Positions 20,661 to 44,919 of a stretch of 64,000 nucleotides of DNA are shown here, piece by piece. Under the pieces are notes generated by a model. The model was not told where the DNA came from and searched no databases. It saw nothing but the letters and a program-made list of their open reading frames with translations. The DNA lies in contig CAVPAE010000007.1 of the NCBI GenBank assembly GCA_963701455.1, positions 223,761-287,760 on the forward strand. The letters run 5' to 3'. Each line of letters begins with the position of its first letter. Positions within the stretch are counted from its first letter, which is position 1. The position numbers were made by a program, and so were the translations under genes. This DNA comes from an uncultured Gammaproteobacteria bacterium. GTDB lineage: Bacteria > Pseudomonadota > Gammaproteobacteria > UBA9214.

Positions 20661-20670
20661 GCAGGTCTCC

Positions 20671-23270: not shown

Positions 23271-23519
23271 CGAACCACGCACTCCTGAGTATCACTGACC
23301 AAATTGAGTGCAAGCCTTATGCCAATAAAACAGGCTTGTAAGCTATTGATAAATAATAGCGTATAAGCAGTCCCTCATGAATCGCATGTTTCGTATTGCA
23401 ACAAACCGCATCCGGAGCTATATAAGCACTGCAGTATATACTGATTTGAGCGTATTTCCAGCGTGCGTTACACTATGCAACGCAATTTTGCAAATTGAAA
23501 CGCTCCAGCCAGTCCCGCC

Positions 23520-24989: not shown

Positions 24990-26356
24990 GTATCGATACC
25001 GGCAGCGGCGGCAGCCTGCTGATCGTCGATGACGAGGCAGTCGCCGTAGAAAACCTGGCCCATGCTTTTCGCAAGGCCGGTTACACGGTAACAACGCGCA
25101 CCACCGGCCCCGGCGGCATCGAGGCACTGGAAAATAACCGCTTCGACGTGGTGCTGACCGACGTGCGCATGGAACATATCGACGGCATGGCAATCCTGAA
25201 CCGCGCCCTGGAACTCGATCCGGATGCCGCGGTGGTACTGATCACCGGTCACGCCACCCTGGGCTCAGCGGTTGCCGCCATGCGCGCCGGCGCCTACCAC
25301 TACATCGCCAAGCCGTTTCGCCTGGACGAGGTCCGCAAGGTCGTCGCCAACGCCATGGAACGTGCACACCTGCGGCGTGAAAACCGGCAACTGCGCCACC
25401 AGGTGAATGACAGCCACAGTGGAACCCGCATCATCACCCAGGATGCCTCCATGCAACGACTGCTGGAGACGGCACGGCAGATTGCACCCACCGACTGCAA
25501 CGTCCTCATCGCCGGTGAAAGCGGCACCGGCAAGGAACTGCTCGCGCGCTATATCCACCTGCAAAGTGGACGCGCGGAAAAACCGTTCCTTGCCATCAAC
25601 TGCGGCGCCCTGCAGGAGGAATTGCTTGCCAATGAACTGTTCGGCCACGAGAAAGGTGCATTCACCGGCGCTGGCGAGAAACGCACCGGCCTGATCGAGG
25701 CCGCAGACGGCGGCACCCTGCTGCTGGACGAAATCGGCGACATGTCGCTGGCCATGCAGGTCAAGCTGTTGCGCGTGCTCCAGGAACGCGAAGTCCTGCA
25801 CCTCGGCAGCACCCGGCCGGTGCCGGTCGATGTGCGTTTTCTTGCCGCGACCAATCGCGACCTGCGCAACGAGGTCGATGCGGGACGTTTCCGCCACGAC
25901 CTCTACTTCCGCCTCGACGTCGTAACACTGGAACTACCGCCGCTGGCCGAGCGGCGCGACGATATCCCCCTGCTCGCCTACTATTTCCTCAAGAAAGTTG
26001 CGCATCGCATGGGACGGCCCGTGGCGGATATCGAACCCGAGGCCATGTCCCTGCTGCGCGACTATGACTACCCGGGAAACGTCCGCGAACTGGAAAATGT
26101 GATCGAACGCGGCGTAGCCCTGGCCACCGGTCGCAAACTTACACCCACGCAGCTGCCCCCGTCACTGGTAGACCAGGCGGTGCACGTCGTGCGCACCACA
26201 GGAGACCAGCTGCCCACACTGGAAGAGCGGGAGACGCAATATATTCGCTGGGTGCTGAAACGCACCGGCGGCAATCGCACCAGGGCGGCGGAAATCCTCG
26301 GAATCGACCGCGTGTCACTGTGGAGAAAGCTGAAAAACCTCGATACCACCGAGTAA
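24986..26356 (+). CDS. sigma-54-dependent response regulator (NtrC family: REC, AAA+, HTH)
   Basis: Receiver Asp region VVLTDVRM. Walker [15 protein letters not shown] motif present. C-terminal HTH. Confidence 0.9.
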
Positions 26357-26763
26357 ACCCGACAGTTGCATAAATTTCGGCCTGACAATTCATTTCACCC
26401 CCCTGATTTACAGGATGCAATGACTATTTCATGCTATTTCCGGAATTCACACCTGGCGAGCTTCTGGTCCGATCTTGCAGGAGCACCGTGAATACTCCAC
26501 CAGCTAAAGCCGGTGGCTTCGGGTTACGGCTAAAAGCCGGATTGATCGGCCCTTCGGCCGATTGCCTCGATATCCACCGCCGATGGCATTCCACGCTCCC
26601 TGTGCACTGCTCTCGCCGATACACGATCTACTGACCTCGTCATTGCGGCGCAGGCCGCAATCCAGATTCACCCGTGGACTGATTTCTCTGGATGCCGGCC
26701 TGCGCCGGCATGACGACTTTCCGTCTGAAGGCGGGGGGGGTGTACTGATCCCCTGTTCGAGAC

Positions 26764-26831
26764 TCTAAAGGGCATAAACGGTTTTCATGCGCGAATCACG
26801 GCTGTAAGCCGTTTATGCCCTTTAGGGTGCT
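26764..26831. other. perfect 17-bp inverted repeat (ctaaagggcataaacgg ... ccgtttatgccctttag) with 33-nt loop, within a 580-bp structured non-coding gap
   Basis: Read directly from the sequence. Additional hairpins at 26644-26661 (ttgcggc gcag gccgcaa) and 26693-26712 (atgccggc ctgc gccggcat). Confidence 0.7.
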
Positions 26832-26937: not shown

Positions 26938-28553
26938 TCAGAAGTCAGCCCGGTAGCCCAGGTTAATAAAATAGCTGTTGCTCTCTTCAGAGCCATCAAC
27001 AATTTCGCGGTCCGAATATTCCCCCCCGATTTCGGCTTCCAGGCGCAGCCTGCGCTTGATCCGATAGTCCAGCCGCAGTGACGGGCGGTAGGTGATCTGG
27101 TCCGTGCCGTCATCCCGGTTATTGCTGTAATCCATTCTGAAGCGTGGGTTGACCCGAAATTCACTGGTGACGGGATATCGCGTATTTAAATTCAGGGAAT
27201 AGATATCCCTGTTGCCCGCATCGGAATAACGCAGACCTGCTATCGTAATATCACCCGGCTTTACCAGATTGCTTCCGACGAGTTGCAGGTTGTAAACAAA
27301 ATCGGTGCCTGTTCCATCCGTCGCCGCAACACCACCTGAAGCGCTGGTACCAGAAAGGTTAAATGCCGTGACATCACCGCTTACCTGCAGTTTTTCGGTT
27401 ATTGGATGCGACACGCCCAGGGTCGCAAGCTTGCTGGTTGCCGTGCGATCACGCGCCAGATCCTGAATTTCACTGGCTGCAAGGCTGTTCTGCAGCTCAT
27501 CGATTGAGCTGACAGCCTGGCCCACCAGCGCATTCCGGCTCGTAAGGATCGGACTCCTTCTGTAATCTGCGACCACGTTGACCGTGGTCTTGTCCGAGAA
27601 TGTCCAGTTCCCGAGCAGCTGCCCGATATTCAGTTCGTTGTAATGTATGTCGTAGTCGACGAGACTGAAAAACGAACGAGCGGCGTCAAAATATCTGAGC
27701 TCACCACCAACCGCACGACGATCTGTGATTCCATCCACCTGCTGCTCGATAACAAAGGCATTTGCATCCCACCCCTTCGCAAACCCTTCAGTCTCGAGAG
27801 TCAACCCATAGAAGTATCTGTCCGTACCTTCGAAAGCATCAGTCGATGATTCTACCGGGAATCCGCCAACCGCACTCACCGAGAACTTTTTGCCCAAAGG
27901 GACCCCCAGCAACAGGCCGTCAAAGCGCCCCAATACTCCTCCGGTACTGCGGGACTGTCGTCCGATTCGCATGGACATGTCGCTCTGTGTTGAGCTGGCA
28001 TCAAAGTACAGTCGAACTCACAGTGGTATCAGTGTTAGCACCGTCATCAATAAAGTCATGCAAATAGCCACCGGTAAAGCGGGCCTGTAGATTGTAGTCG
28101 CTACCGCGCAGCCGGGCAGTGACATCCATATTGCTGTCCAGAGATGACTGGGTCAGCGTCGTGAGTTCATTGTCATCATCAATATTGGTTGTATTCTCAT
28201 TACGCCGGTAGTACTGGGAAACTCCACCGAACACATCCCACTGCGACTCCGCTTCATTACGCGACTTGCTCCGGGTTGTGCCCAGTTTCTCCCTGGGCTG
28301 TTTTCTGGCAGTCATCAGGGCCGCAAAACGTTGTTTGACACGTTCAGCACCCTCTCCTTCCGGGTAACGCTCAAGATAAGTCCTGTATACCAGTTCTCGC
28401 CTGCGCCAGCTGGTCGTTGCGTTCACGGGCCAGTCCCAGGTATTCCAGGGAATCCTGGCTGTACTGGTTATCGGGCTGCTCCAGAATCTTGGTATATAGC
28501 CTGATTGCCCCGGCATAGTCCTTGTCGGTCATATTGTTACGCGCCTCCTGCAC
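26938..28553 (-). pseudogene. TPR-domain + outer-membrane beta-barrel protein, interrupted by at least 2 frameshifts (may merge with the upstream SPOR-like ORF)
   Basis: C-terminus ends ...GYRADF, an aromatic terminal residue typical of OM beta-barrels. Alternating beta-strand pattern throughout 26938-28516. A one-base shift near 28003-28020 joins ...SSTVL to FDASSTQSDMSMRIG.... A shift near 28385 joins ...LGLARERNDQLAQAR to RELVYRTYLERYPEG... (TPR). Confidence 0.55.
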
Positions 28554-29572
28554 CAGGGAAGCAAGTCGCTCCGGCGTGACAACATTGCCCGCAGCAACTT
28601 CACGCGGAACAACGACTGCAGACGCGTAGTCGCCTCTGGTTGGGCTGTTGTGCCCGCACCGGATCCGGACAGGTTACCGGCGAGCATGGATTCACCGGAA
28701 CGGGTCCTTTCTGCTACTGATGCTTTGGCAACCCAGGAATCCGGGTAATAGGCCTTGAGTTCTTCCCTGACAATATCTGCTTGCTGCACCTTCCTGAAAA
28801 ACCCGAATCGCAGCCGGTACCATGTCTTGCCGTCCTTGACAAAGGTGGTGGTGTAAACGCGATATGCCTGGGATTCACCAGGATCTGGCAAATCCATGAA
28901 TACTTCCGGATCAGGCAAATCATTTACCTCGAACGGCGTGACTGATGAGGCCAGATTAATAACATAAGGATAGAGCGTGGCAGTGGTCGCCGCCTCCACC
29001 GGGACTTCCGTATTGGCAGCAGTCGCTTCAGTCATGATCGCGACAGGTGTTGTCGAATCGCTATCAGGCCGGTTTCCCGGCCCCGCGTGAAGTACGTCTT
29101 CCACTGCAGACGCACCCGGATTTCCCCTGCTTTGCGGATGCTTTACAACTACATCGATGGTCCTGAAATCTCCTGAACGAGGTATCTCGAATTCCACCTC
29201 CTTCTGAAAGCGCAAGGTAATGCTTGTATTCGCGAATCCGGCGCCTTCGTAGGTCACGTCGTACAATGGCATATCTCTGTCCGGACTCCACTGTATCGTC
29301 TGCTCCCCCAGCAATGTATCCCCGGCAGAGCCGAGTGACGGGGCCGGTTCCACAAAGATGCGCAGCAGATCACCGGATCGTTCCGGCGCATGTGATTTGT
29401 AGCTCACCGGAATGGTAAGCCTGATATGGATAGTCGACTGATCCCGGCCAGGTGTGATATCGATGCTGTCGATAACATCAATGGCGGCCTGCGCTCCCGT
29501 AGTAACCGGCACACAACATATAACGCATAACAGCCGCGCGAACCTCGCCATGCCGTGAAATATATTTTTCAT
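28529..29572 (-). CDS. periplasmic protein with SPOR-like domain; 3' end uncertain (probable frameshift into TPR frame near 28640-28680)
   Basis: Signal peptide MKNIFHGMARFARLLCVICCVPVTTGAQA. SPOR-like segment KTWYRLRFGFFRKVQQADIVREELKAYYPDSWV. The alternative frame past 28680 reads protein-like (...VVVPREVAAGNVVTPERLASLVQEARNNMTDKDYAG...). Confidence 0.5.
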   Translation of the reverse strand: MKNIFHGMARFARLLCVICCVPVTTGAQAAIDVIDSIDITPGRDQSTIHIRLTIPVSYKSHAPERSGDLLRIFVEPAPSLGSAGDTLLGEQTIQWSPDRDMPLYDVTYEGAGFANTSITLRFQKEVEFEIPRSGDFRTIDVVVKHPQSRGNPGASAVEDVLHAGPGNRPDSDSTTPVAIMTEATAANTEVPVEAATTATLYPYVINLASSVTPFEVNDLPDPEVFMDLPDPGESQAYRVYTTTFVKDGKTWYRLRFGFFRKVQQADIVREELKAYYPDSWVAKASVAERTRSGESMLAGNLSGSGAGTTAQPEATTRLQSLFRVKLLRAMLSRRSDLLPWCRRRVTI

Positions 29573-30060
29573 TCGCTGACAGGGTCCACAACCGGTTGCT
29601 GCTGGACTTCCGGCGCAACCTCGTCCACATAAACCACGATACTGCGAGAATCCCTGCCCTGTTCCACCCAGAAATCGACACAACGATTGAAGAACAGGGT
29701 CAGATACGGACCACCTTCGATATCTCCCTCATAAACCACCTCGTCGAGCGGCAGGTTTTCATAGTCGAAGGGAACGAGAGTTTCCCGCTTGTGCAAGGCA
29801 TTCAGGTCATCCGCGCTGATCCCAAAAGGCCTGATCCTGATACGCAGTTCCTTGCCAGACTCATACGGGAAGTGGCTGTCATACCTTACCCGCGTTGTCA
29901 GACTGACCTGCACTGTCGTCACAGCATCGGTCTCGTACACATCCAGGGTATCGAGTATTTTCTTTCTGACCGGCTCGGAATCCACCAGCTGCGTGAATAG
30001 GAGCACGCCAAGCGCCAGCAAGATTCCGGCTCGTGCTTTTCGTCCAGGCATCTGCATCAC
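29569..30060 (-). CDS. secreted hypothetical protein (163 aa)
   Basis: Signal peptide (MMQMPGRKARAGILLALGVLLFT). Its stop overlaps the downstream start as ATGA at 29569-29572. Confidence 0.5.
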   Translation of the reverse strand: MMQMPGRKARAGILLALGVLLFTQLVDSEPVRKKILDTLDVYETDAVTTVQVSLTTRVRYDSHFPYESGKELRIRIRPFGISADDLNALHKRETLVPFDYENLPLDEVVYEGDIEGGPYLTLFFNRCVDFWVEQGRDSRSIVVYVDEVAPEVQQQPVVDPVSE

Positions 30061-30070
30061 TGCACCTCCG

Positions 30071-33000
30071 TCAGAAATCGCTACTGGTTGTACGGTGCTC
30101 AGGCCCGGGGCGACGGTCCTTGATCGTCGTCATGCTGCTGTCCGTATACATATGACAGCTTCCCGAACAGTCCCTCAACTCGCTGACACTGTAGGTCGTA
30201 TCGGGATTCTCGTATTTCTTGTGTGCGCTCTGCTTGAAATCATTCGCATGACACGCTGCACAATCCGGCACATACGCAGGTGCCGACCAGTTCACTACCT
30301 CACTGTTTGCCTGGTGACACGCAGTACAGAGAAGATTACTTCTGTGGTCTCCCGGATATGACGCCGAGGTATGCTGGAAATCCAGTGGCACCCAGTAAGA
30401 CGTCGTATGACATGCGTCGCACTGTAAACTGGTGACGAAGTGCCCGCCGGGCTTGCCGGTTGCCGTTGTACCGTTATGACAATTCGAGCATGAACCCGTG
30501 ACTTGGTCGTGATTAAAGCTGGCCGGCAGCCATGCGATAGTCGAATGGCATTCATCGCATTGCGCCGACGTGATGACATGTCCGGATGGCTTTCCGGTTG
30601 AGGTAACCCCGTTGTGGCAGGTAGTACATGTTCCGGGGGTCACATTGGCATGATCGAATACCGCCGGCAGCCAGGCGCTCGTGCTGTGACAGTCATCGCA
30701 GGTGTTGTTGCTGGCGATGTGGTTGACCGACTTGCCGGGCGCCGTGCTGCCATCGTGGCAGCTGAAGCAGGTCCCCAGCACGTCGGCATGGTCCACCCGG
30801 GTCACCGGTAGCCAGGCGCTCGTGCTGTGACAGTCATCGCACAGCGCCGTGGTCTGGATATGGGTACTGTTCTTGCCCGTGGCCGTGGTGCCGTCGTGGC
30901 AGCTCGCGCAGTTGCCGCTCACCGTGCTGTGATCGAAGGTCGCCGGTAGCCAGGCGCTCGTGCTGTGACAGTCATCGCAGGTGTTGTTGCTGGCGATGTG
31001 ATTGGCCGTCTTGCCGGGCGCCGTGCTGCCATCGTGGCAGCTGAAGCAGGTCCCCAGCACGTCGGCATGGTCCACCCGGGTCACCGGCAGCCAGCTACTG
31101 GTGCCGTGGCAGTCCTCGCACAACGCCGTGGTCTGGATGTGGGTCGGGTTCTTGCCCGTGGCCGTGGCACCGTCATGACAGCTCGCGCAGTTGCCGCTCA
31201 CCGTGCTGTGATCGAAGGTCGCCGGCAGCCAGGCACTCGTGCTGTGACAGTCATCGCAGGTGTTGTTGCTGGCGATGTGGTTGACCGACTTGCCGGGCGC
31301 CGTGCTGCCGTCGTGGCAGCTGAAGCAGGTCCCCAGCACGTCGGCATGGTCCACCCGGATCACCGGCAGCCAGCTACTGGTGCCGTGGCAGTCCTCGCAC
31401 AACGCCGTGGTCTGGATGTGGGTCGGGTTCTTGCCCGTGGCCGTGGCACCGTCATGACAGCTCGCGCAGTTGCCGCTCACCGTGCTGTGATCGAAGGTCG
31501 CCGGCAGCCAGGCACTCGTGCTGTGACAGTCATCGCAGGTGTTGTTGCTGGCGATGTGGTTGACCGACTTGCCGGGCGCCGTGCTGCCATCGTGGCAGCT
31601 GAAGCAGGTCCCCAGCACGTCGGCATGGTCCACCCGGGTCACCGGGATCCAGCTGCTGGTGCCGTGGCAGTCCTCGCACAGCGCCGTGGTCTGGATATGG
31701 GTACTGTTCTTGCCCGTGGCCGTGGTGCCGTCGTGGCAGCTCGCGCAGTTGCCGCTCACCGTGCTGTGATCGAAGGTCGCCGGTAGCCAGGCGCTCGTGC
31801 TGTGACAGTCATCGCAGGTGTTGTTGCTGGCGATGTGGTTGGCCGTCTTGCCGGGCGCCGTGCTGCCATCGTGGCAGCTGAAGCAGGTCCCCAGCACGTC
31901 GGCATGGTCCACCCGGGTCACCGGCAGCCAGCTACTGGTGCCGTGGCAGTCCTCGCACAACGCCGTGGTCTGGATGTGGGTCGGGTTCTTGCCCGTGGCC
32001 GTGGCACCGTCGTGACAGCTCGCGCAGTTGCCGCTCACCGTGCTGTGATCGAAGGTCGCCGGTAGCCAGGCGCTCGTGCTGTGACAGTCATCGCAGGTGT
32101 TGTTGCTGGCGATGTGATTGGCCGTCTTGCCGGGCGCCGTGCTGCCATCGTGGCAGCTGAAGCAGGTCCCCAGCACGTCGGCATGGTCCACCCGGGTCAC
32201 CGGCAGCCAGCTACTGGTGCCGTGGCAGTCCTCGCACAGCGCCGTGGTCTGGATATGGGTACTGTTCTTGCCCGTGGCCGTGGTGCCGTCGTGGCAGCTC
32301 GCGCAGTTGCCGCTCACCGTGCTGTGATCGAAGGTCGCCGGCAGCCAGGCGGTGGTGCTGTGACAGTCCTCGCAGGTCGCGGCACTGGGGATGTGGTTCG
32401 TACTCTTGCCGATGGCGGTGGCACCGTCGTGGCAGCTCACGCAGGTCCCCAGTACCTCGGCATGATCGACCTGGATCGCCGGCAGCCAGGCCGTCGTCTG
32501 GTGGCAGGCCTCGCAGATCGTCGTGGTCTGGATGTGGGTCGGATTCTTGCCGGTGGCCGCGGTGCCGTCGTGACAGCTCGCGCAGTTGCCGCTCACCGTG
32601 CTGTGATCGAAGGTCGCCGGTAGCCAGGCGCTCGTGCTGTGACAGTCATCGCAGGTGTTGTTGCTGGCGATGTGGTTCGCACTCTTGCCGATGGCGGTGG
32701 CACCGTCGTGGCAGCTCACGCAGGTCCCCAGCACCTCGGCATGATCGACCTGGATCGCCGGCAGCCAGGCCGTCGTCAGGTGGCAGGCCTCGCAGATCGT
32801 CGTGGTCTGGATGTGGGTACTGTTCTTGCCGGTGGCCGCGGTGCCGTCGTGGCAGCTCGCACAGTTACCGGTGACGTTGCTGTGGTCGAAGGTCGCCGGC
32901 AGCCAGGCGGTGGTGCTGTGACAATCCTCGCAGGTCGCGGCACTGGGGATGTGGTTCGTACTCTTGCCGATGGCGGTGGCACCGTCGTGGCAACTCACGC

Positions 33001-33808
33001 AGGTCCCCAGTACCTCGGCATGATCGACCTGGATCGCCGGCAGCCACGCCGTCGTCAGGTGGCAGGCCTCGCAGACCGTGCTGGTCTGGATGTGTGAGCG
33101 GCGCTTGCCCGTGGCAACGATGCCGTCATGGCAGCTCGAACAGGCACCAGTGATATTGGCATGGTCGAAACTCGCATTCGCCCAGGCGATGGTGGTATGG
33201 CAATCCTCGCAGGTATCGGCACTCGGAACGTGGTGATTCGACTTACCTGTGGCCGTAGCACCATCATGGCAACTTGAGCATGTAGCGGTAACATTACTGT
33301 GATCGAAGGTCGCAGTTGTCCAGGCAGTTGTGGTATGGCAGTCCTCGCAAGTATCGGCACTTGAGATATGATTGGTGGTCTTGCCGGTCGATGTTGATCC
33401 ATCATGACAAGTTGCGCAGGATCCAATAACTGCATCGTGACTCATGTTAGCCAGTGGTTTCCAGTACGCATCCGTATGACATTCTTCACAAACAAGGTTC
33501 GTCTGGATATGATCAGACGGCATCTTGTCTGCCGGCATCGAGCTGGCCTGGTTGTGACAAACCCCGCATTCAACCGGTGTTCCCTCAAATATTCCACGCA
33601 GGTGACAACTCGTACAGGGTGCATTTTTATGCGCGCCTTCAAGCGGGAATCCTGTAGAAAAATGATCAAACCCGGCATTGGTTCCGAGCGCCATCACACC
33701 ATGTGACAGCAAGAACAGGAAACAGACAAACAGGAACATAACAGTCGCAGGCCGGCGGATTTCCCTCGACCCGGCCATTGACATGGTGACTTGTTGTTTA
33801 GGCTTCAT
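30071..33808 (-). CDS. giant c-type cytochrome with about 50 heme-binding motifs (49 CxxCH + 1 CX3CH)
   Basis: Signal peptide ...FLFLLSHGVMA. My hand count gives 49 CxxCH plus CSGSCH near the C-terminus. About nine tandem 93-aa tetraheme modules, with one extra His per heme (FDHS, THIQ, VDHA, NHIA). Start taken at ATG 33808 (MKPKQQ); ORF ATG 33847 is an alternative. Confidence 0.85.
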   Translation of the reverse strand: MKPKQQVTMSMAGSREIRRPATVMFLFVCFLFLLSHGVMALGTNAGFDHFSTGFPLEGAHKNAPCTSCHLRGIFEGTPVECGVCHNQASSMPADKMPSDHIQTNLVCEECHTDAYWKPLANMSHDAVIGSCATCHDGSTSTGKTTNHISSADTCEDCHTTTAWTTATFDHSNVTATCSSCHDGATATGKSNHHVPSADTCEDCHTTIAWANASFDHANITGACSSCHDGIVATGKRRSHIQTSTVCEACHLTTAWLPAIQVDHAEVLGTCVSCHDGATAIGKSTNHIPSAATCEDCHSTTAWLPATFDHSNVTGNCASCHDGTAATGKNSTHIQTTTICEACHLTTAWLPAIQVDHAEVLGTCVSCHDGATAIGKSANHIASNNTCDDCHSTSAWLPATFDHSTVSGNCASCHDGTAATGKNPTHIQTTTICEACHQTTAWLPAIQVDHAEVLGTCVSCHDGATAIGKSTNHIPSAATCEDCHSTTAWLPATFDHSTVSGNCASCHDGTTATGKNSTHIQTTALCEDCHGTSSWLPVTRVDHADVLGTCFSCHDGSTAPGKTANHIASNNTCDDCHSTSAWLPATFDHSTVSGNCASCHDGATATGKNPTHIQTTALCEDCHGTSSWLPVTRVDHADVLGTCFSCHDGSTAPGKTANHIASNNTCDDCHSTSAWLPATFDHSTVSGNCASCHDGTTATGKNSTHIQTTALCEDCHGTSSWIPVTRVDHADVLGTCFSCHDGSTAPGKSVNHIASNNTCDDCHSTSAWLPATFDHSTVSGNCASCHDGATATGKNPTHIQTTALCEDCHGTSSWLPVIRVDHADVLGTCFSCHDGSTAPGKSVNHIASNNTCDDCHSTSAWLPATFDHSTVSGNCASCHDGATATGKNPTHIQTTALCEDCHGTSSWLPVTRVDHADVLGTCFSCHDGSTAPGKTANHIASNNTCDDCHSTSAWLPATFDHSTVSGNCASCHDGTTATGKNSTHIQTTALCDDCHSTSAWLPVTRVDHADVLGTCFSCHDGSTAPGKSVNHIASNNTCDDCHSTSAWLPAVFDHANVTPGTCTTCHNGVTSTGKPSGHVITSAQCDECHSTIAWLPASFNHDQVTGSCSNCHNGTTATGKPGGHFVTSLQCDACHTTSYWVPLDFQHTSASYPGDHRSNLLCTACHQANSEVVNWSAPAYVPDCAACHANDFKQSAHKKYENPDTTYSVSELRDCSGSCHMYTDSSMTTIKDRRPGPEHRTTSSDF
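30500..33050. repeat. tandem array of about nine 279-bp units (93-aa tetraheme modules) inside the 50-heme cytochrome gene, several copies near-identical at DNA level
   Basis: Identical antisense ORF peptides recur at 31260, 31539 and 31818 (279-bp spacing). 30965 and 32081 share peptide text 1116 bp (4 x 279) apart. This is coding, not a CRISPR array. Confidence 0.85.
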
Positions 33809-33861
33809 ATGCTGTTCTGTTTCCTGAATTAGCAATACCCGGAACACCGGAAATAGCGCCC

Positions 33862-35445
33862 TTACCTGATTTCCACCACGTCAAACGATTCCGTCGTGTG
33901 GCAACGATCGCAATACTTCCCAAACTCTCCGTCATGCACATCCTCCTGGCGATGACAGGAAACACAGGTACCTGGCAGCCTGATTTCTCCTGTTATTTCC
34001 TCAACGTGACAGGACAGACAATCAATATCCTGATGCGCACCATCCAGTTCGTAATTCGTGTGAACGTTGTGTTCAAACTCCCACAAAGACCAGTCATTCG
34101 GGTTATGACACGACTCACAGCGCGGGCCCAAGCGGCGTTCATGCACATCATCCGGCTGATGACAAACATTGCATTCACGTGCCGCCTGTTTGTATGCCGA
34201 TGTCAGATGGCACTCCTCGCACGGGGTAACCGCATGCAAACCGAGAAGCGGGAAATCGGTCATATCGTGTTCGAAACGCACCTTCCCGCCCCAGCCATCC
34301 TCGTCATGGCATTTCTCACAACGCTTGCCCTCCTGGCCCTCGTGCACATCATCCGCTCCATGACAACTGAAACATTCCGTTGCAAGTTTTTCCTCGTAAA
34401 CCTCACCCCTGTGACAGGATGAGCAACTGGCTTCCTGATGCTTCCCGCGCAATGGAAACTCCGTTTCCCGATCATGCTCGTACTTCACCTTGTCCCAGCC
34501 ACGCGTGCTGTGGCAGGCCTGGCATTTATTCCCGTATCGGCCAGCGTGCTTGTCGTCACCGCGATGACAGTCGATACATTCCGTGCCCAGTGCCGTGTCA
34601 TACAGTTTCCCCACATGGCAGACATCGCACTTCACTTCCCGGTGACTTCCGGAAAGCGAATATCCCGTATCACGATCATGATCGAACCGGGAGCGGTCCC
34701 AGCCTGCCTCTGAATGACAGTCTTTGCATTTCTGCCCGTAACGACCGGCATGCACATCATTCAGCCTGTGGCAGGTATGGCATTCCCCGGGGATATCCTT
34801 GTATTTGTGATTGACGTGGCAACTGTCACAGGCCAGTTCTGCATGCTTTTCCCGAAGCACGAAATCCGTGTCGTCGTGGTTGAATTCCTGGCTGGTCCAA
34901 CTGCGCTCGGCATGGCAATCCGCACACTGCTCACCAAGCCTGCCTGCATGAATGTCGTCTCCCTCATGGCATGAGACGCACTCCTGCGGCGCATCGCGGA
35001 ATTTTTTCCCTTCAGCGTGGCAGGCTGCACAACGCGTCGCAATATGCGCACCCTTTAGCAAGTAATCCGTTTCATCATGTGCAAAGGTTTCAACATCCAG
35101 CTGGACTACGTCTGCATCGCGACCCTTGTGATCGCTATGGCAATGACTGCACTCTGCATTCCTTGCCACTCCCAACCCGTGGAAACCTGTCTGCTGCCGA
35201 ATATCTGCATCGACTTCCTCGTGACAGTCCCGGCACAGCATGCTTTGGCTCTCCTTGCTGAAGGGCTTGTGGCACTTTTCACACTCTTCCTCGTATTTCA
35301 TGTGCCCCTCTATCACCTGCCCCGGTTTGACCAGTGATTCGATTCCTGCAAACACAGTCGAACCGAAGCACATAGCCGCCACAAAGAGGGTGGCGGCAAT
35401 ACAAATCCGGTACCGTTTCACAGTGACTTTTCTTGCATGGGCCAT
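33862..35445 (-). CDS. 21-heme c-type cytochrome (7 x tri-heme repeat)
   Basis: Signal peptide MAHARKVTVKRYRICIAATLFVAAMCFGSTVFA. 21 CxxCH motifs in a repeating CxxCH-x~15-CxxCH-xxDDxHxGxxGxxCxxCH-x4-W-x5-FxH pattern. Its start shares one nucleotide with the upstream stop (TGATG at 35443-35447). Confidence 0.85.
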   Translation of the reverse strand: MAHARKVTVKRYRICIAATLFVAAMCFGSTVFAGIESLVKPGQVIEGHMKYEEECEKCHKPFSKESQSMLCRDCHEEVDADIRQQTGFHGLGVARNAECSHCHSDHKGRDADVVQLDVETFAHDETDYLLKGAHIATRCAACHAEGKKFRDAPQECVSCHEGDDIHAGRLGEQCADCHAERSWTSQEFNHDDTDFVLREKHAELACDSCHVNHKYKDIPGECHTCHRLNDVHAGRYGQKCKDCHSEAGWDRSRFDHDRDTGYSLSGSHREVKCDVCHVGKLYDTALGTECIDCHRGDDKHAGRYGNKCQACHSTRGWDKVKYEHDRETEFPLRGKHQEASCSSCHRGEVYEEKLATECFSCHGADDVHEGQEGKRCEKCHDEDGWGGKVRFEHDMTDFPLLGLHAVTPCEECHLTSAYKQAARECNVCHQPDDVHERRLGPRCESCHNPNDWSLWEFEHNVHTNYELDGAHQDIDCLSCHVEEITGEIRLPGTCVSCHRQEDVHDGEFGKYCDRCHTTESFDVVEIR

Positions 35446-36413
35446 CAGTACATGTGCACGGCATACACATGGACAAGACCGGCAATCAAAAGCATGATGA
35501 AGAGAGGCAGATGGAGAACGTGCCACATGGAAAACAACCGCTCGAAGAATGAAAAGCCGGCCACCTTGCGGACCGTATACAGGTATGTGCGCAGGTAATA
35601 CCCTGCCTTGCGGTAATAATAGCGGCGTTGCTCTCGAGTCAGTCTCTCGCGAACAATCGGTGTCCTGAAGAATCGGCGCAACTCCAGCAGGGATACCAGC
35701 AGGCACCAGCGTGATCTGATGTTGATCACCAGCATACTGACCAGGCAAGAGAGAAAGCCGTTTTGGGTTGCCACCGCCTTGTCTTCAATACGCTGCAGCC
35801 GGACCTTCATTCCCGGCATTTCCTTGAAGACGGGTCCGAGTTCCGCCATGGCCATTGCTGTATCGCTGCCCAGATCCTCAAGATCTGCTTTTCGGCCATA
35901 CAGACCGTAGTGGACTTTTGAATATATAAATCTGCCGATCAGGCCACTGCCGGCAACCAGCAGCATACTGAACAGGGCGACATTCCCGTTTATGGAACCG
36001 AGCTGGAAGTTACAATGCAGGAGAATACAAACAGGCCCCAGGATACCCAGCAACATGTGCCCCCTGAACCAGTGGCGCACCGGTCCGAAGCCCTGTGCCC
36101 AGCGCGCATGCTTGCGTAGCGGATACAGCATGAGCAACAGCATCATCGTGCCTCCTGTTATACCAAGGGCATAACCGATACCTAGCTCCGGTGTGAGATA
36201 AAGGTAACTGCCATACTTCCATCCGCAATACACAAGCAGCAGGACCAACAGGTGGAAGACCGGTAACTCCGGAACCCGGGAAGACCTCTCACGTCCCTCA
36301 TTATCCCGTTTGATAATGGGTTCATTTGCAGGGTCCTGAGGGTATCCCGCGACGCCTGCGGCTTGAGTTATCGAGTTCTTGTCAATATCAAAAACAGTCT
36401 GTACTTCACTCAT
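35445..36413 (-). CDS. polytopic membrane protein with conserved His in TM helices; putative b-type cytochrome / quinol-interacting subunit
   Basis: About 6 TM helices. His residues sit in TM1 (FHLL), TM3 (HWFRGHMLLG...LLHCNF) and TM6 (MWHVLHLP...LVHVYAVHMY). Translationally coupled to the 21-heme gene. Start at MSEVQ (36413); ATG 36503 is an alternative. Confidence 0.5.
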   Translation of the reverse strand: MSEVQTVFDIDKNSITQAAGVAGYPQDPANEPIIKRDNEGRERSSRVPELPVFHLLVLLLVYCGWKYGSYLYLTPELGIGYALGITGGTMMLLLMLYPLRKHARWAQGFGPVRHWFRGHMLLGILGPVCILLHCNFQLGSINGNVALFSMLLVAGSGLIGRFIYSKVHYGLYGRKADLEDLGSDTAMAMAELGPVFKEMPGMKVRLQRIEDKAVATQNGFLSCLVSMLVINIRSRWCLLVSLLELRRFFRTPIVRERLTREQRRYYYRKAGYYLRTYLYTVRKVAGFSFFERLFSMWHVLHLPLFIMLLIAGLVHVYAVHMY

Positions 36414-36766
36414 TACCGCCCCCGTTCCCCAGGATGTACAAACACCGCAATATCTGTACCTGCATATCGGACCTGCAGCGAAAGTTCTCAACCAGCCAGG
36501 CAACCCAGAAATACGTATCCGGAGGGGCTCTCATGCTTGAGAAATTCCATAACCCACTGCTTTTACTAGTGAATACACTGCACCACAGAACATAAACACA
36601 GAATCACACAAATGTGACGGACTTCACTATTTGGGAGGATATTCCCATTTGTTGATATACTATGCAACATTCAATTACAGGATTGCCGATGCAGTCACAC
36701 AACAGAAAAGCTTTCAGAAAACATAATTCACATGCGAGCACAGAACCCGCGTACAGGTAGACACCG

Positions 36767-38068
36767 ATGACCGATACCGCACTTTATTTCTATCTGACCC
36801 CGATGCTGTTCATCTGGGGCATTTACTATGGATTTCGCACCAGGAGGCATCGCCGCGCCACCCGCTTGCGCGATGACGCACAAAAGTCCGGTCTTCTGGC
36901 TCCGGCATCACTCCACCCCGTGATAGATTCATGCCGCTGCCTGGGTTGTCGGTCCTGCGTAAGCGCCTGCCCGGAAAAATCAGTACTGGGAATTATTGAT
37001 AGCAAATCCGTGCTGGTCAGCCCTGCCAACTGCATCGGGCACGGCGCATGCAAAACCGCCTGCCCGATGAACGCAATCACACTGGTGTTTGGCACATCCG
37101 AACGCGGCGTCGATATTCCACTGGTTGCTCCCGACTACGAGACCAATGTTCCCGGTCTTTTTATTGCCGGAGAACTGGGCGGGATGGGGCTGATTCGCAA
37201 CGCCGTTGAACAGGGCCGTCAGGCAATGGCATCCATCATCGAGCACTGTCGGAAGGGAAACAGGCAGGAACTGGATGTCGTAATCGTCGGCGCCGGACCC
37301 GCGGGTCTTTCAGCCAGCCTGGCCGCACAGGAAAGCGGCCTGCGCTACGCAACACTCGAACAGGATTCTCTCGGGGGAACGGTATCCCATTTCCCGCGAG
37401 GAAAAATTGTCATGACAGCTCCTGTAAAGCTACCCCAGGTCGGCACAGTTAAATTCAGGGAGATATCCAAGGAAGCACTGCTGGAATTCTGGGAGGACGT
37501 CATCAGGAAGACAGGCGTGCAGATCATATTCAGGGAACGCGTTGAAGCCATCACGCCTCTTGCAGGAGGACTAGAAGTCAGGACTCCCGGGAATGTCTAT
37601 CGCACCAAATGCGTCCTGCTCGCGATTGGCCGGCGCGGCACACCGCGCAAGCTGGATGTGCCTGGCGAAGAATCAACAAAAGTCGTCTACCGGCTGATAG
37701 ATCCAGAGCAATACCGCAATCAGAAAGTACTGGTTGTCGGGGGTGGAGACAGCGCCCTGGAGGCCGCGATAAGTATTGCCGAGCAGCCCGGCACGGATGT
37801 CAGCCTGTCTTATCGCAGCGCTGCATTTTCCCGCGCCAAGGAAAAGAACCGGCAGAAGATTGATGACTTGAACAATTCAGGCCGCTTGAAAGTCTTCCTG
37901 AATTCCACGGTCAGCGAAATACATGAGAACAGGGTAGAAATAGACCAGCAAGGCAACATGATTGATATCGGGAATGATGCCGTGATCGTCTGTGCCGGTG
38001 GCATTTTACCTACACCCTTCCTGAAAGAAATCGGCGTCGAGGTGGAAACAAAATATGGCACGCAGTAA
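36767..38068 (+). CDS. membrane-anchored 4Fe-4S ferredoxin-domain + FAD/NAD(P)-binding pyridine nucleotide-disulfide oxidoreductase-like protein
   Basis: N-terminal TM helix. Two Cys clusters (CRCLGCRSCVSACP and CIGHGACKTACP). Two Rossmann GxGxxG motifs (VVIVGAGPAG, VLVVGGGDSA). Confidence 0.7.
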   Translation: MTDTALYFYLTPMLFIWGIYYGFRTRRHRRATRLRDDAQKSGLLAPASLHPVIDSCRCLGCRSCVSACPEKSVLGIIDSKSVLVSPANCIGHGACKTACPMNAITLVFGTSERGVDIPLVAPDYETNVPGLFIAGELGGMGLIRNAVEQGRQAMASIIEHCRKGNRQELDVVIVGAGPAGLSASLAAQESGLRYATLEQDSLGGTVSHFPRGKIVMTAPVKLPQVGTVKFREISKEALLEFWEDVIRKTGVQIIFRERVEAITPLAGGLEVRTPGNVYRTKCVLLAIGRRGTPRKLDVPGEESTKVVYRLIDPEQYRNQKVLVVGGGDSALEAAISIAEQPGTDVSLSYRSAAFSRAKEKNRQKIDDLNNSGRLKVFLNSTVSEIHENRVEIDQQGNMIDIGNDAVIVCAGGILPTPFLKEIGVEVETKYGTQ

Positions 38069-40145
38069 GACGATTACCGGATTCTGCAGCCACGGACCGT
38101 TATTACGCTCCTGTTCAGCCATTGCTGCATGTCTGCTGTTTGCCTGCCTCTTCGCACCATCTGCCGCCGCCACCGGGGAGTTTGATGAAATACGCGCCGC
38201 CATCCGGGTGCGTGACTTTGGAAAGGCCATCCCCCTGCTTGAAACCCTGGCAAGCTCGGGCAACCCCGACGCCCAGTATCAACTTGCCGCCTTGTATCGC
38301 GCAGGCTCCGGCGTTGCAAAGGATCACGAAACCGCATTTTACTGGCTGGACAAGGCCGCACACCGGAATCACAGGCAGGCCCAGTACAACCTGGGCGTTA
38401 TGTATGAATATGGATGGGGAACGCTGGCAAGCGCGGCAGCTGCAGCCGACTGGTATGAAAAGGCCGCCGCACAGGGCCACCCGATGGCGCAGGAAAAGCT
38501 TAACGAGAGTGATATAGCCGCACGCCGCACAAGAGATAATACGCGGCCTGGCGAAGCACCCGACCCGGACCTGTTACTGCGGCGGGCCGTGACAAGGGGC
38601 GATGCGCGGTCGGCCAGTGAAGCCATCAAGGCCGGCGCCAATGTGGATGCAACTGACAAATACGGCAGAACCGCGCTCATTGATGCCGCCGAACAGGGAT
38701 TTACTGAAATCGTCGAGCTGTTGATAAGCAATAATGCCGACATCAACCACGAGGATGCCTATCGCAACAGCGCACTGCTCCTGGCAACCGGCAATGGCCA
38801 TTCCGATACGGTCAGGAAACTGCTCACTGCCAATGCAGACAGCAACGCCACGGACACAAATGGCAACACCCCGTTGATGATCGCGAGTGGAAGGAATGAT
38901 GTAGAGATTGTCCGGGCATTGATAGCACAGGGCGCACGCCTTTACGGGAAAAACACCACGGGTGATTCTGCCGCTGATATCGCGGCCCGCAAGCGGCATG
39001 CTGAGATACTGAAAATCCTGCAGGCGCGTGGCGCCAATCCTGAAAAGCATTTTGCCCAGAAGAAGGCGACGATCGCCAAACGCCTTGCCATGCAGAATCC
39101 TGACCCGGCATCCGGATCCGGTGGCAAGGAATCATCACAGCCATATGCAGGCTGGTCAGCGCTGATGGAGTCTGCCTGGCGCGGCCAGGAAGAAATCGTC
39201 CGGGAACTGCTGGACCGGGGCGTCGATATCAATAGCAGGGATGATCAGGGCCACACTGCCCTGACGCGCGCAGCCAGCAAGGGGAACAGCAAGATTGTGC
39301 AGCTGTTACTGGAAGCCGGCGCCGATACCGGTGTCACCCGTGACGATGGCATGACCTTGCTCATGCTGGGCACTGCATCGGGTGATGCCGACACGGTCAC
39401 GTTGCTGCTTGCAAGGGAGCGCAATATCAACGCAAGGGATACCGATGGTTGCACTGCCCTCTGCTACTCGGTCCGCAACGGTGACACGGATATTGCCAGC
39501 CTGCTGTTGCAGCATGGTGCCGACAGCAACCTGGCTCTGAATGACGGCAGGACGGTCCTGATGCTGGCGGCTGAAATGGACACACCGGAGATACTGGCTC
39601 TGCTGCTCGCAAACGCACCCGCGGTCAACCAGCCGGACAAGACCGGCCTGACTGCCTTGTCATACGCGGTTATCAAGGGACACGAAAAGAATGCGCGCAT
39701 GCTGCTGGAGCATGGCGCGAAGCCAAACATCAGCGACTCGAAAAAGCGCACCCCGCTTACGCTTGCCGCCACGGGTAAAAACACAAATATTGTCGACCTG
39801 CTGATCAAGCACCGGGCTGACATCGCAACAAGCACCAGCGATGGTAATACGCCGCTTATTCTTGCAGCCAATTCCGGGAATACTGCCATCGCCGGCCGTC
39901 TGATAAAAGCAGGAGCAGATATCAATGTGCGCAACAATAATGGAAACACAGCCCTGATGCTTGCTGCCGCAAACAATCATGTCGACATCGTCAGGATCCT
40001 GCTGGAAACCGGCGCCAGGGCGGGAATCAGGAACAACAATCGCAAAAGCGCCAGCGACCTGGCCGAGGCCTCGGGAAATACGGAAACACTTGCCGTCCTT
40101 GAAAAGCACCGCAGTAGCGGGCTATGGTCATCCAGCTGGTTCTGA
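38055..40145 (+). CDS. secreted Sel1-repeat + ankyrin-repeat (about 15 ANK) protein
   Basis: Signal peptide. Sel1-like units (AQYQLAALYRAGSGVAKD, AQYNLGVMYEYGWG). Then repeated G.TALM.AA..G...IV..LL..GA..N units through the C-terminus. Overlaps the upstream gene by 14 nt. Confidence 0.8.
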   Translation: MARSKTITGFCSHGPLLRSCSAIAACLLFACLFAPSAAATGEFDEIRAAIRVRDFGKAIPLLETLASSGNPDAQYQLAALYRAGSGVAKDHETAFYWLDKAAHRNHRQAQYNLGVMYEYGWGTLASAAAAADWYEKAAAQGHPMAQEKLNESDIAARRTRDNTRPGEAPDPDLLLRRAVTRGDARSASEAIKAGANVDATDKYGRTALIDAAEQGFTEIVELLISNNADINHEDAYRNSALLLATGNGHSDTVRKLLTANADSNATDTNGNTPLMIASGRNDVEIVRALIAQGARLYGKNTTGDSAADIAARKRHAEILKILQARGANPEKHFAQKKATIAKRLAMQNPDPASGSGGKESSQPYAGWSALMESAWRGQEEIVRELLDRGVDINSRDDQGHTALTRAASKGNSKIVQLLLEAGADTGVTRDDGMTLLMLGTASGDADTVTLLLARERNINARDTDGCTALCYSVRNGDTDIASLLLQHGADSNLALNDGRTVLMLAAEMDTPEILALLLANAPAVNQPDKTGLTALSYAVIKGHEKNARMLLEHGAKPNISDSKKRTPLTLAATGKNTNIVDLLIKHRADIATSTSDGNTPLILAANSGNTAIAGRLIKAGADINVRNNNGNTALMLAAANNHVDIVRILLETGARAGIRNNNRKSASDLAEASGNTETLAVLEKHRSSGLWSSSWF

Positions 40146-42917: not shown

Positions 42918-42985
42918 GTCGTATTCTCCTTTTGTAATAACGTCCCTGCTTGTTGATATTCCCCGCGGCAGAGCCACAGCCGCTT

Positions 42986-44707: not shown

Positions 44708-44742
44708 TAATCGCCTGAGCAGTTACCTGTATTCTAGGAGTC

Positions 44743-44908
44743 TCTGAACAAGTCCCGACTCGTCATTCCGGCGCATGCCGGACAAAAGCGCAAGGCGCGT
44801 TGAACGCCCGGAGGGCGGCCCGCAGGGTGAGCGAAGCGAAGCATCCTGGAAATCAACAAGCTGGACCCCGGCTTTCGCCGGGGTGACGACTTATTCAGGA
44901 TTTCCTTG
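44743..44908 (+). repeat. ~167-bp interspersed repeat family C, full copy
   Basis: About 90% identical to 46618-46784. Contains the hairpins cattccggcgcatgccgg and ccccggctttcgccgggg. Confidence 0.85.
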
Positions 44909-44919
44909 ATTCATTATCG

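Follow-up and report, generated by a model that had tools for sequence, protein, structure and literature searches.

A probable PCC3 porin-cytochrome gene cluster with a frameshifted porin gene and two linked partner genes in an uncultured gammaproteobacterium

The minus-strand cytochrome genes of the window (the whole 64,000-nucleotide stretch that was analysed) very probably constitute a member of the PCC3 porin-cytochrome gene clusters, as judged from the defining features and from homologues in the same bacterial groups. The locus is a further example of PCC3, with the porin gene broken by three frameshifts, and two divergent genes lie beside it. Four components define the class (He et al. 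2017, Front Microbiol 8:1584; PMC5566968): an inner-membrane protein (IMP) of ~300 aa, which has five TM helices and carries SGXXG as well as two WX3HX13H motifs; a periplasmic cytochrome with 21 hemes; a second, very large cytochrome built of repeats rich in Thr, Ser, and Ala (median 34 hemes, reported maximum 63); and a porin. Its hosts include Sideroxydans lithotrophicus ES-1 (Slit_0867-0870 and Slit_1446-1449), Leptothrix cholodnii SP-6, and the endosymbionts of Riftia, Tevnia, and Ridgeia (PMC5566968).

All four components, the IMP motifs, and a seven-repeat 21-heme cytochrome are present in the window (Table 1), in the same order as in Slit_1446-1449 (IMP, periplasmic cytochrome, extracellular cytochrome, porin), and the large cytochrome is likewise Thr/Ser/Ala/Gly-rich and internally repeated, with ~25 aa per heme. 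The window differs by its 50 heme motifs, which are high against the median of 34 (the Thiodiazotropha loci of the comparison reach 67-68), by an additional small paralogue of the porin N-domain, and by the splitting of the porin through three indels. The earlier note had read the locus as a three-layer conduit made of components outside any described family; the reading agrees with what the literature proposes for such clusters, but the components match PCC3 feature by feature (PMC5566968). An entirely novel type of extracellular electron transfer, beyond every described family, is thus contradicted and was rejected as highly improbable: the IMP lacks a Pfam or NCBIfam family match, the small secreted protein and the barrel lack a curated Pfam/NCBIfam model, and no solved structure was found for the cluster components, yet every defining feature of the published class is found. 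Taken as one claim, the PCC3 identity and the general trans-envelope conduit reading are likely to hold; that PCC3, a class which is a bioinformatic construct, works as a trans-envelope conduit is held with moderate confidence.

Table 1. Coordinates of the features of the locus in the window
Feature	Coordinates	Strand	Basis or remark
Inverted repeat, 33-nt arms	26762..26828	.	~110 nt downstream of porin stop
Outer-membrane SPOR-TPR-barrel (porin) gene	26938..29572	-	SPOR Pfam match, AF2 model, intact orthologues
Span of three frameshift sites	28013..28627	-	Alignment to intact L163 orthologue, 82.7% DNA identity
Secreted protein, ~160 aa, paralogue of porin N-terminal domain	29569..30057	-	30% identity to porin N-domain
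50-heme cytochrome, ~1245 aa, 49 CXXCH + 1 CX3CH	30071..33808	-	Matches PCC3 'extracellular MHC'
Tandem array, 8.9 copies of 279-bp unit (93 aa, 4 hemes)	30651..33138	.	Inside 50-heme gene
21-heme cytochrome, 527 aa, 21 CXXCH	33862..35445	-	Motif count; matches PCC3 'periplasmic MHC'
IMP, 322 aa, 5 predicted TM helices	35445..36413	-	Motifs, 27 homologues, AF2 model
Flavoprotein, 433 aa, divergent from IMP	36767..38068	+	Fe-S/FAD/NAD(P) motifs, linkage counts
Ankyrin/Sel1 protein, 696 aa	38055..40145	+	Signal peptide, Sel1 repeats, many ankyrin repeats

Sequence and comparison establish the heme and IMP motifs, the predicted barrel, and the gene order with its conservation. The seven consecutive minus-strand ORFs listed earlier sit at the coordinates given for them, but comparison with relatives reduces the cluster to five genes: ORFs 28529-29683, 28001-28516, and 26938-27978, which had been taken for separate SPOR, TPR, and barrel proteins, are fragments of one frameshifted gene that forms a single ORF of 816-883 aa in relatives. 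Both reported overlaps are present: TGATG (35443-35447) joins the IMP stop to the start of the 21-heme gene, and ATGA (29569-29572) the stop of the ~160-aa protein to the porin start. The same gene order occurs in ~140 loci spread over many phyla, where heme numbers reach 68. In 80 IMP-anchored genome loci (Gamma-, Alpha-, and Deltaproteobacteria, Nitrospirota, Thermodesulfobacteriota, and Omnitrophota), the IMP gene is followed, in nearly all, by the 21-heme gene (range 18-27), then by a 10-68-heme gene and the SPOR-TPR-barrel gene. The barrel gene is always downstream of the cytochromes in relatives, directly so in dozens of loci. Many of the host organisms are sulfur or iron lithotrophs. 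The inverted repeat beyond the porin gene may represent a transcript end or a REP-like element.

The heme motifs of the two adjacent cytochromes were recounted and agree with the earlier figures (21, and 49 + 1); such numbers are not due to chance, as every other ORF in the six frames of the window has 9 or fewer. The 21-heme protein starts at ATG 35445, inside a listed ORF that extends over 33862-35748, and contains an N-terminal signal peptide and seven triheme c7-like repeats of ~67 aa (25.1 aa per heme); its counterpart in the Riftia symbiont has seven repeats of ~66 aa (PMC5566968). Those seven triheme modules would form a periplasmic wire. The 50-heme protein probably starts at ATG 33808, while the listed ORF reaches 33847; the ORF 30071-33847 encodes 103 His and, as noted before, one heme per ~25 residues (~24.9 aa). 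The protein is rich in Thr, Ser, Ala, and Gly and has a Sec-type signal peptide. It matches Cytochrome_C7, Paired_CXXCH_1, and an MtrC/MtrF domain in Pfam, shows a match to the DmsE family (TIGR03508) composed of repeated stretches, and matches MtrA (6r2q_A) weakly. Its C-terminal ~170 aa are kept at the gene end in relatives. The array copies share 91% identity without indels, and the wire would have grown by tandem duplication of the 4-heme unit; such recent expansion explains why the heme number varies among relatives (10-68 in homologous genes). The claim that the protein carries about twice the largest known number of hemes does not hold: larger numbers than 50 are on record, with 55-68 CXXCH motifs in homologous second cytochromes and 63 in the work of He et al.

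In the porin protein, an N-terminal domain is followed by a SPOR domain (~28727-28870), a pair of TPR-like hairpins (~28400-28532), and a barrel of 22 strands (~26941-28240) that ends in the YRADF terminus pointed out before. The AF2 model of the repaired TPR and barrel parts contains 4 helices and 22 strands (pLDDT 89.4), consistent with the barrel prediction for the last ORF. The paralogous ~160-aa protein belongs to no known family; a separate copy of it is also encoded in loci L002, L012, L019, and L163 of the comparison. As in MtrCAB/MtoAB/PioAB, a multiheme cytochrome would be threaded through an outer-membrane barrel and accompanied by an outer cytochrome, and the 50-heme protein has MtrA/DmsE-like stretches (TIGR03508; 6r2q_A). 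In contrast to those systems, the cluster lacks a decaheme unit protein and an MtrB/PioB family match, the barrel has 22 instead of 26 strands, one 21-heme protein rather than small shuttles bridges the periplasm, and the place of a CymA/NapC-type protein in the inner membrane is taken by a b-type-like partner with 5 TM helices.

Alternatively, the TPR-barrel gene might have nothing to do with the cytochromes and encode a porin for polysaccharide export of the PgaA/BcsC/PelB type. This identity is scarcely credible and was rejected: the scores do not exceed those of TonB-dependent receptors and porins without any relation to it, there are two TPR hairpins only and 22 strands versus 16-18, the 15 kb on either side contain neither a glycosyltransferase nor a synthase gene, and the gene is always within the cytochrome cluster. 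An extracellular site of the 50-heme protein is proposed for its PCC3 counterpart; the window protein lacks a lipobox, and no secretion genes are nearby. These features, together with the ordinary Sec signal, would also fit a capacitor or redox buffer formed in the periplasm by both giant cytochromes, the SPOR-TPR-barrel protein having a separate envelope role. Charge storage is raised as a possibility by Hoover et al., and SPOR, TPR, and the N-domain indicate peptidoglycan or periplasmic contacts. Such a store is nevertheless improbable given that the barrel gene is held directly behind the cytochromes in dozens of loci and that 22 strands are, by estimate, in principle wide enough for a heme chain. 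In the solved Mtr complex, it is MtrA that sits inside the barrel, and the MtrA/DmsE-like stretches of the large cytochrome likewise argue against storage.

Relative to the L163 orthologue, the window porin has a 4-nt gap near 28627 and one extra base each near 28398 (GCGAGA[A]CT) and 28013 (TTCG[A]CTG); therefore, if these indels did not arise in assembly, the conduit may be without its outer-membrane component. The locus might be a decaying remnant, its porin inactivated by the three indels and no trans-outer-membrane conduit made in this organism, which we regard as rather doubtful. Compared with an 82.7%-identical intact orthologue, three frame-breaking indels fall within a span of 620 bp, none inside a long homopolymer, and the broken 344-aa porin ORF is also present, 100% identical, in the deposited NCBI/ENA assembly. 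However, the four remaining cluster genes and the two partner genes are undamaged and keep their conserved motifs, and the barrel part, 75% identical to that of L002, has no in-frame stops, so any inactivation would be very recent. Similar splits also occur in other genes of related metagenome assemblies (e.g., the Ank gene in L081 and L163), which makes assembly error a live alternative. The PCC3 porin is also frameshifted in a Leptothrix ochracea assembly (PMC5566968).

The IMP starts at ATG 36413, later than the ORF-list start, and has more than 4000 homologues. The motifs are W115-x3-H119-x13-H133 in TM3, S156-G-x-x-G160 in TM4, and W297-x3-H301-x13-H315 in TM5; the four TM-helix His, whose presence at the operon head had been recognized and whose conservation was to be checked, are invariant or nearly so in 27 homologues. 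The AF2 model has 5 helices (pLDDT 66.6), and a helical cytoplasmic domain of ~125 aa lies between TM4 and TM5. The protein is a putative di-heme-b transmembrane electron carrier, in which the four His would ligate two hemes b, with one close to either face of the membrane. Two HX13H His pairs on two TM helices, with one heme near each face, are shared with the ferric reductase domain proteins, namely NOX/FRE/STEAP and the bacterial two-component system MsrQ-Fre; a flavin/NAD(P)H module on the cytoplasmic side would supply the electrons that cross the membrane. MsrQ-Fre has its flavin reductase as a protein of its own, an arrangement also proposed for the locus. Unlike the ferric reductase domain proteins, to which no sequence membership was detected, the IMP has no PF01794 match and 5 instead of 6 TM helices; the proposed reductase is additionally equipped with a membrane anchor and two Fe-S clusters, and the acceptor is a multiheme c wire rather than O2, Fe(III), or MsrP.

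A candidate for such a reductase is encoded by the first of two conserved divergent partner genes (36767-40145), which the earlier note, covering 26938-36503, overlooked. The flavoprotein contains the Fe-S motifs CxxCxxCxxxCP and CxxHxxCxxxCP (two clusters, one with His; 2x[4Fe-4S]), the latter in 116/116 homologues, as well as FAD (GAGPAG) and NAD(P) (GGGDSA) sites. The N-terminal TM helix and the Arg-rich stretch after it are both conserved, so the bulk of the protein should face the cytoplasm; no twin-arginine motif was seen in the sequences ahead of the hydrophobic segment. The gene adjoins the cluster in 73/80 IMP-anchored loci and, reciprocally, the IMP and 21-heme genes are present in 49/58 flavoprotein-anchored loci. 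The ankyrin/Sel1 gene, which overlaps the flavoprotein gene by 14 nt and encodes a signal peptide conserved in homologues, accompanies it at 69/80 genome loci (as a divergent pair in 56, within the same co-directional gene string in 9, and downstream of the porin gene in 4) and is present in 30/48 metagenome loci. Searchable PCC3 literature contains no mention of the porin SPOR/TPR parts or of the linked flavoprotein and ankyrin/Sel1 genes.

Gene association makes the flavoprotein a tentative cytoplasmic redox partner of the IMP. According to the model of He et al., the IMP is instead a quinone-active cytochrome b that joins the quinone pool to the multiheme wires (e.g., in electron uptake from Fe(II) or minerals), which would leave the flavoprotein and ankyrin genes co-regulated and outside the electron path. 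We consider this unlikely, though it has points in its favor: HX13H pairs on two helices also mark quinone-reactive di-heme cytochromes b, sulfur and iron lithotrophs are frequent among the hosts, and the model is the one given in the literature (PMC5566968). The search, however, gave no quinone site and no cytochrome-b family match for the IMP, and the flavoprotein gene stays next to the cluster in three different arrangements and across phyla, a pattern that would be difficult to account for if the two had no functional connection. An energy-conserving redox loop is established for FdnI-type proteins, and a cytoplasmic-side quinone site with membrane-spanning hemes would, by inference, give one for electron uptake; against this model, and also against the conduit reading preferred here, both PCC3 clusters of Sideroxydans ES-1 are lowered in expression on Fe(II). 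PCC4 clusters (He et al. 2017) share the 5-TM IMP pattern with SGXXG and 2x WX3HX13H, and in subgroup II an Fe-S protein gene adjoins the IMP gene (in one genome, the annotation joins the two in a fusion), which provides a precedent for an Fe-S partner. PCC4 nonetheless has no giant extracellular cytochrome, its Fe-S partner is of another family (pfam13247), and its IMPs have no overall sequence similarity to those of PCC3.

In the preferred reading, the inner-membrane module would, tentatively, be a NOX/ferric-reductase-like unit split over two proteins, instead of or in addition to a quinol oxidase; a membrane-anchored, cytoplasm-facing FeS/FAD/NAD(P) flavoprotein would serve it as cytoplasmic partner, and the periplasmic ankyrin/Sel1 protein is proposed to act as a scaffold of the system. 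Electrons would move from one end of the path, on the cytoplasmic face of the inner membrane, to the other, outside the cell, or in reverse, by way of two hemes b, 21 c-hemes, and the barrel-threaded giant cytochrome; outward flow, from NAD(P)H to an external acceptor, would be the thermodynamically easier direction. The cluster class itself was already described; what is new here is a pair of previously unreported partner genes adjoining a PCC3 cluster, and their linkage suggests a NOX-like cytoplasmic entry or exit of electrons.

The minus-strand ORFs that the earlier note listed between 26938 and 36503 are all present, as are the stop/start overlaps at 35443-35447 (TGATG) and 29569-29572 (ATGA). 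The heme motifs had also been counted correctly: ORF 33862-35748 contains 21 CXXCH motifs and ORF 30071-33847 contains 49 CXXCH and one CX3CH, the latter with about two His residues per heme, and at most nine such motifs occur in any other ORF of the window. The true starts are located later than in the mechanical ORF list. The inner-membrane protein (IMP) at the head of the cluster begins at ATG 36413 (322 aa) and the 21-heme protein at ATG 35445 (527 aa with a signal peptide). The 50-heme protein probably begins at ATG 33808, yielding 1245 aa with a Sec-type signal peptide; no lipobox was seen in its sequence. The seven ORFs amount to five genes, as the SPOR, 171-aa, and 346-aa barrel ORFs are pieces of a single gene.

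Clusters of the porin-cytochrome class PCC3 were defined by four components: an IMP, two multiheme cytochromes, and a porin (He et al. 2017, PMC5566968). The IMP, about 300 aa long, has five TM helices and carries WX3HX13H on both TM3 and TM5 as well as SGXXG on TM4; of the cytochromes, the periplasmic one has a median of 21 hemes and the extracellular one a median of 34 and a maximum of 63. Its cytochromes are of low complexity, rich in Thr, Ser, Ala, and Gly, and internally repeated, with about 26 aa per heme, and its hosts include Sideroxydans, Leptothrix, and tubeworm endosymbionts, among others (He et al. 2017, PMC5566968). All four components are encoded in the one cluster of the window. 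The IMP has the expected length, five TM helices, SGXXG, and both WX3HX13H motifs; the periplasmic cytochrome agrees with the class in heme number (about 21, range 18-27), heme spacing (about 26 aa), and repeats; the second cytochrome, predicted to be extracellular, combines 50 motifs with a Thr/Ser/Ala/Gly-rich composition and tandem repeats; and the beta-barrel is present, its gene being disrupted as assembled. The gene order is that of Slit_1446-1449 of Sideroxydans lithotrophicus ES-1 as listed in PMC11429942, and the 21-heme protein of the Riftia symbiont PCC3 is comparable to the repeated 21-heme protein found here. Because of these sequence features and of the order shared by homologous loci, the locus is assigned to a described class, as a new member of PCC3. 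The observations of the earlier note were largely correct and its functional guess reasonable, whereas its claim of novelty is contradicted by the PCC3 match, which makes a wholly new system very unlikely. The combination characteristic of MtrAB, MtoAB, and PioAB (a decaheme MtrA-type cytochrome with an MtrB/PioB-family porin of 26-28 strands) is absent from the locus. The location of the second cytochrome outside the cell and conduction across the envelope are predictions of the literature (He et al. 2017, PMC5566968); periplasmic charge storage, with the outer membrane not crossed, is considered improbable.

Features of the PCC3 cluster and of its surroundings in the window
Feature	Position	Strand	Remarks
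Multiheme cytochrome gene	2-1741	+	truncated by left edge of the window; at least 9 CXXCH, heme-sparse
PD40 beta-propeller protein	1888-3429	+	after the preceding cytochrome gene
Two adjacent CitMHS-family transporter genes	19230-22653	-	476 and 660 aa, 10 bp apart; TrkA_C domain on the second
Sigma-54-like -24/-12 match	23309-23324	-	TGGCATAAGGCTTGCA; 1 mismatch; just 5' of ORF 22722-23282
Sigma-54 activator gene	24986-26356		near the preceding match
Inverted repeat	26762-26828		33-nt arms, 82% complementary, 1 nt between
Porin (barrel) gene	26938-29572	-	
Porin frameshift 3	near 28013	-	one extra base vs L163
Porin frameshift 2	near 28398	-	one extra base vs L163
Porin frameshift 1	near 28627	-	4 nt missing vs L163
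160-aa protein gene	29569-30057	-	
50-heme cytochrome gene	30071-33808	-	
21-heme cytochrome gene	33862-35445	-	
IMP gene	35445-36413	-	
Flavoprotein gene	36767-38068	+	
Ankyrin/Sel1 protein gene	38055-40145	+	
SCO1/SenC	42234-42977	-	
Subtilase with MopE-type metal-binding motif	44920-46839	-	
Two adjacent multicopper oxidase genes	49266-50540, 50569-52230	-	
1726-aa ORF	51890-57070	-	no family
Sigma-54-like match	54289-54304	+	TGGCACTTGCATTGCT; perfect; inside the 1726-aa ORF, opposite strand

The motifs of the IMP read W115FRGH-x13-H133, S156GLIG, and W297HVLH-x13-H315. Across an alignment of 27 homologs, conservation is complete at W115, H119, H133, S156, G157, and G160 and nearly complete at W297, H301, and H315; the helices of the predicted model match the PCC3 expectation. 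The protein has more than 4000 homologs and belongs to no Pfam or NCBIfam family, with no significant profile match to Ferric_reduct, Ni_hydr_CYTB, or Cytochrom_B561 (the Pfam ferric reductase domain and di-heme cytochrome b families), and a PDB sequence search with the IMP and the 21-heme protein matched nothing. The 21-heme protein (25.1 aa per heme) consists of seven triplets with a period of about 67 aa, i.e., seven c7-like triheme units (Pfam Cytochrome_C7). The 50-heme protein (24.9 aa per heme; T 14.1%, S 10.6%, A 10.5%, G 6.8%) contains MtrA/DmsE-like stretches and a conserved, non-repeat C-terminal module, and in its gene a 279-bp unit coding for four hemes is repeated 8.9 times in tandem with 91% identity. 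In published AlphaFold models the cytochromes are long and linear. The window also contains a third multiheme cytochrome gene, at its left edge, with Pfam matches to MtrC/MtrF domain II/IV and c7; together with the PD40 beta-propeller protein it may constitute another extracellular electron transfer module of the same genome.

Three-frame translation revealed that the SPOR, 171-aa, and 346-aa barrel ORFs run into one another in different frames, whereas in relatives the same segments are collinear in one frame, forming single ORFs of 816-877 aa. In one homologous locus (L002) the ortholog is a single 869-aa ORF ending in YRADF, and in a close relative (L163, flavoprotein 89% identical) the porin gene is intact, with 883 aa. 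The porin DNA of the window and of L163 is 82.7% identical, with three frame-breaking differences on the side of the window, none of them at a long homopolymer, and a further, harmless 15-nt deletion. A 409-kb NCBI/ENA contig contains an identical barrel ORF of 344 aa, which places the breaks in the deposited assembly; they reflect either a recent pseudogene or an assembly error. The three indels would fit an inactive remnant, compatible with the PCC3 identity of the cluster; this is possible rather than probable. Similar splits affect other module genes of related metagenome assemblies. The ankyrin/Sel1 gene, a single 696-aa ORF in the window, is split in L163 (10009-11944, 148+500 aa) and in another close relative, L081 (2628-4635, 408+275 aa), so frameshifts in the module may be assembly artifacts in several datasets. 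The contigs of L081 and of a further close relative, L082, stop within the repetitive big cytochrome gene, short of the porin.

The 160-aa protein is a paralog of the N-terminal domain of the porin protein. Neither has a Pfam match even at E<=5; an AMIN-like fold of the domain is a guess. The inverted repeat about 110 nt 3' of the porin stop could act as a terminator or represent a REP-like element. A polysaccharide-export porin of the PgaA/BcsC/PelB type, an alternative that the earlier note had raised for PgaA/BcsC, would require a long TPR array, a 16-18-strand barrel, and a synthase alongside. The barrel protein has only two TPR hairpins and 22 strands, no synthase is encoded in the neighborhood, and the linkage to cytochromes is constant, which renders this function extremely unlikely.

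The 80 closest loci listed by a genome-wide scan anchored on the IMP belong to Gammaproteobacteria (many of them Ca. Thiodiazotropha, Sedimenticolaceae, and Thiohalomonadaceae), Alpha- and Deltaproteobacteria, Nitrospirota, Thermodesulfobacteriota, and Omnitrophota. Indirect support for homology to the PCC3 type genes (Slit_0867-0870, Slit_1446-1449, and Lcho) comes from homologous loci in Sedimenticolaceae, Thiodiazotropha, Thalassolituus, and Hyphomicrobiales. In almost all of the 80, the genes after the IMP gene are, in this order, one for 18-27 hemes, one for 10-68 hemes, and the barrel gene. The 50 hemes, which had been taken for a record, are therefore unexceptional in the class. The most hemes among the loci considered here occur in Ca. 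Thiodiazotropha (lucinid-clam symbionts), where the second cytochrome has 67-68 CXXCH in about 1650-1700 aa (L054, L056, L057, L059, L063, L066, L067, L069, L070, and L074-L076). Taken by itself, the locus is unremarkable, a further PCC3 cluster whose porin is damaged.

The part worth pursuing is a pair of genes that accompanies the cluster across phyla and gene rearrangements. Both lie beyond the coordinates given in the earlier note and are transcribed divergently from the IMP gene. In the flavoprotein, a TM helix at the N terminus precedes an Arg-rich stretch, and no twin-arginine motif was found before the hydrophobic segment; most of the protein should therefore lie on the cytoplasmic side. 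Two ferredoxin-type motifs, a FAD site, and a NAD(P) site are present, and the membrane anchor is kept in orthologs. All 116 full-length homologs (P0244-P0363) carry CxxCxxCxxxCP and CxxHxxCxxxCP, in which His replaces one cluster Cys; this family signature implies an Fe-S cluster that is ligated by His or non-standard in some other way. The ankyrin/Sel1 gene shares 14 nt with the flavoprotein gene, and the signal peptide of its product is conserved. A flavoprotein homolog adjoins the cluster in 73 of the 80 closest IMP-anchored loci and an ankyrin homolog in 69, in three arrangements: 56 divergent, nine co-directional flavoprotein-ankyrin-IMP-cytochrome strings, and four downstream of the porin. 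Reciprocally, of 58 metagenome loci anchored on the flavoprotein, 49 have upstream genes for an IMP (33-80% identity) and for a 21-heme protein, and within this set the ankyrin protein is encoded in 30 of 48 loci. Neither partner is mentioned in the PCC3 papers open to text search.

Two-component genes, SCO1, and a periplasmic binding protein were rejected as module parts, not being conserved with the cluster among the 80 closest loci. The region between the IMP and flavoprotein genes yielded no sigma-54 promoter, though a sigma-54 activator gene lies nearby, and matches across the window are at chance level. Elsewhere in the window, a run of copper and secreted-protein genes (42234-57070, minus strand) could be a metal (Mn/Fe/Cu) oxidation locus, in which the two multicopper oxidase ORFs could represent one split gene. 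The two CitMHS-family genes are probably tandem paralogs.

Conserved synteny, topology signals, and cofactor-binding motifs are shown by the sequences; the mechanism that we infer is one in which electrons would travel, outward or inward, between two b-hemes in the IMP and the cell exterior by way of the 21-heme periplasmic wire and a giant cytochrome associated with the barrel. The outer-membrane part would be tied to peptidoglycan by SPOR and the N-domain. A heme pair spanning the membrane is meaningful only with a partner site on the cytoplasmic side, either a quinone site, as in an FdnI-like redox loop, or the neighboring flavoprotein. A quinone-linked IMP, with the neighboring genes as bystanders, corresponds to the model of He et al. 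(PMC5566968) and is possible rather than probable. The persistent linkage of the flavoprotein favors the latter as the IMP partner. Paired with the flavoprotein, the inner-membrane module would act like a split NADPH oxidase (NOX) or ferric reductase. In the MsrQ-Fre system the reductase is a separate protein, and the comparisons with NOX and MsrQ-Fre draw on established knowledge. A precedent for an Fe-S partner is provided by the IMPs of PCC4, which adjoin an Fe-S protein that was once annotated as fused (He et al., PMC5566968).

Tentatively, PCC3 could be a split NOX-like machine rather than a quinol-linked porin-cytochrome complex, formed by a six- to seven-gene module conserved in at least six phyla. 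Electrons would be swapped directly between the di-heme IMP and the anchored cytoplasmic NAD(P)H/FAD/2x[Fe-S] flavoprotein, more than 70 c-hemes would thereby connect the pyridine-nucleotide pool of the cytoplasm with the cell exterior, and the periplasmic ankyrin/Sel1 solenoid would serve as a scaffold or sheath. Electrons that leave NAD(P)H for the outside move downhill, with the membrane potential assisting, whereas inward passage to NAD(P)+ would be uphill in both respects; an electron-disposal role is therefore favored for PCC3, with low confidence.

PCC3 is widespread and is still termed functionally unverified in the 2025 literature, and in the sole organism in which expression was compared the response to Fe(II) was not the expected one: in S. 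lithotrophicus ES-1, both PCC3 clusters are down on Fe(II) relative to thiosulfate. On magnetite the PCC3 proteins were only modestly detected (PMC11429942). The linkage to the flavoprotein and the ankyrin protein offers a concrete, testable answer to how PCC3 electrons cross the inner membrane. If the NOX-like reading holds, the module would be a new way to dispose of electrons independently of respiration, or to take them up. With the flavoprotein as the partner, PCC3 would couple extracellular redox chemistry to NAD(P)H instead of the quinone pool, and PCC3-type genes would have to be read differently in iron oxidizers, sulfur-oxidizing symbionts, and sediment bacteria.
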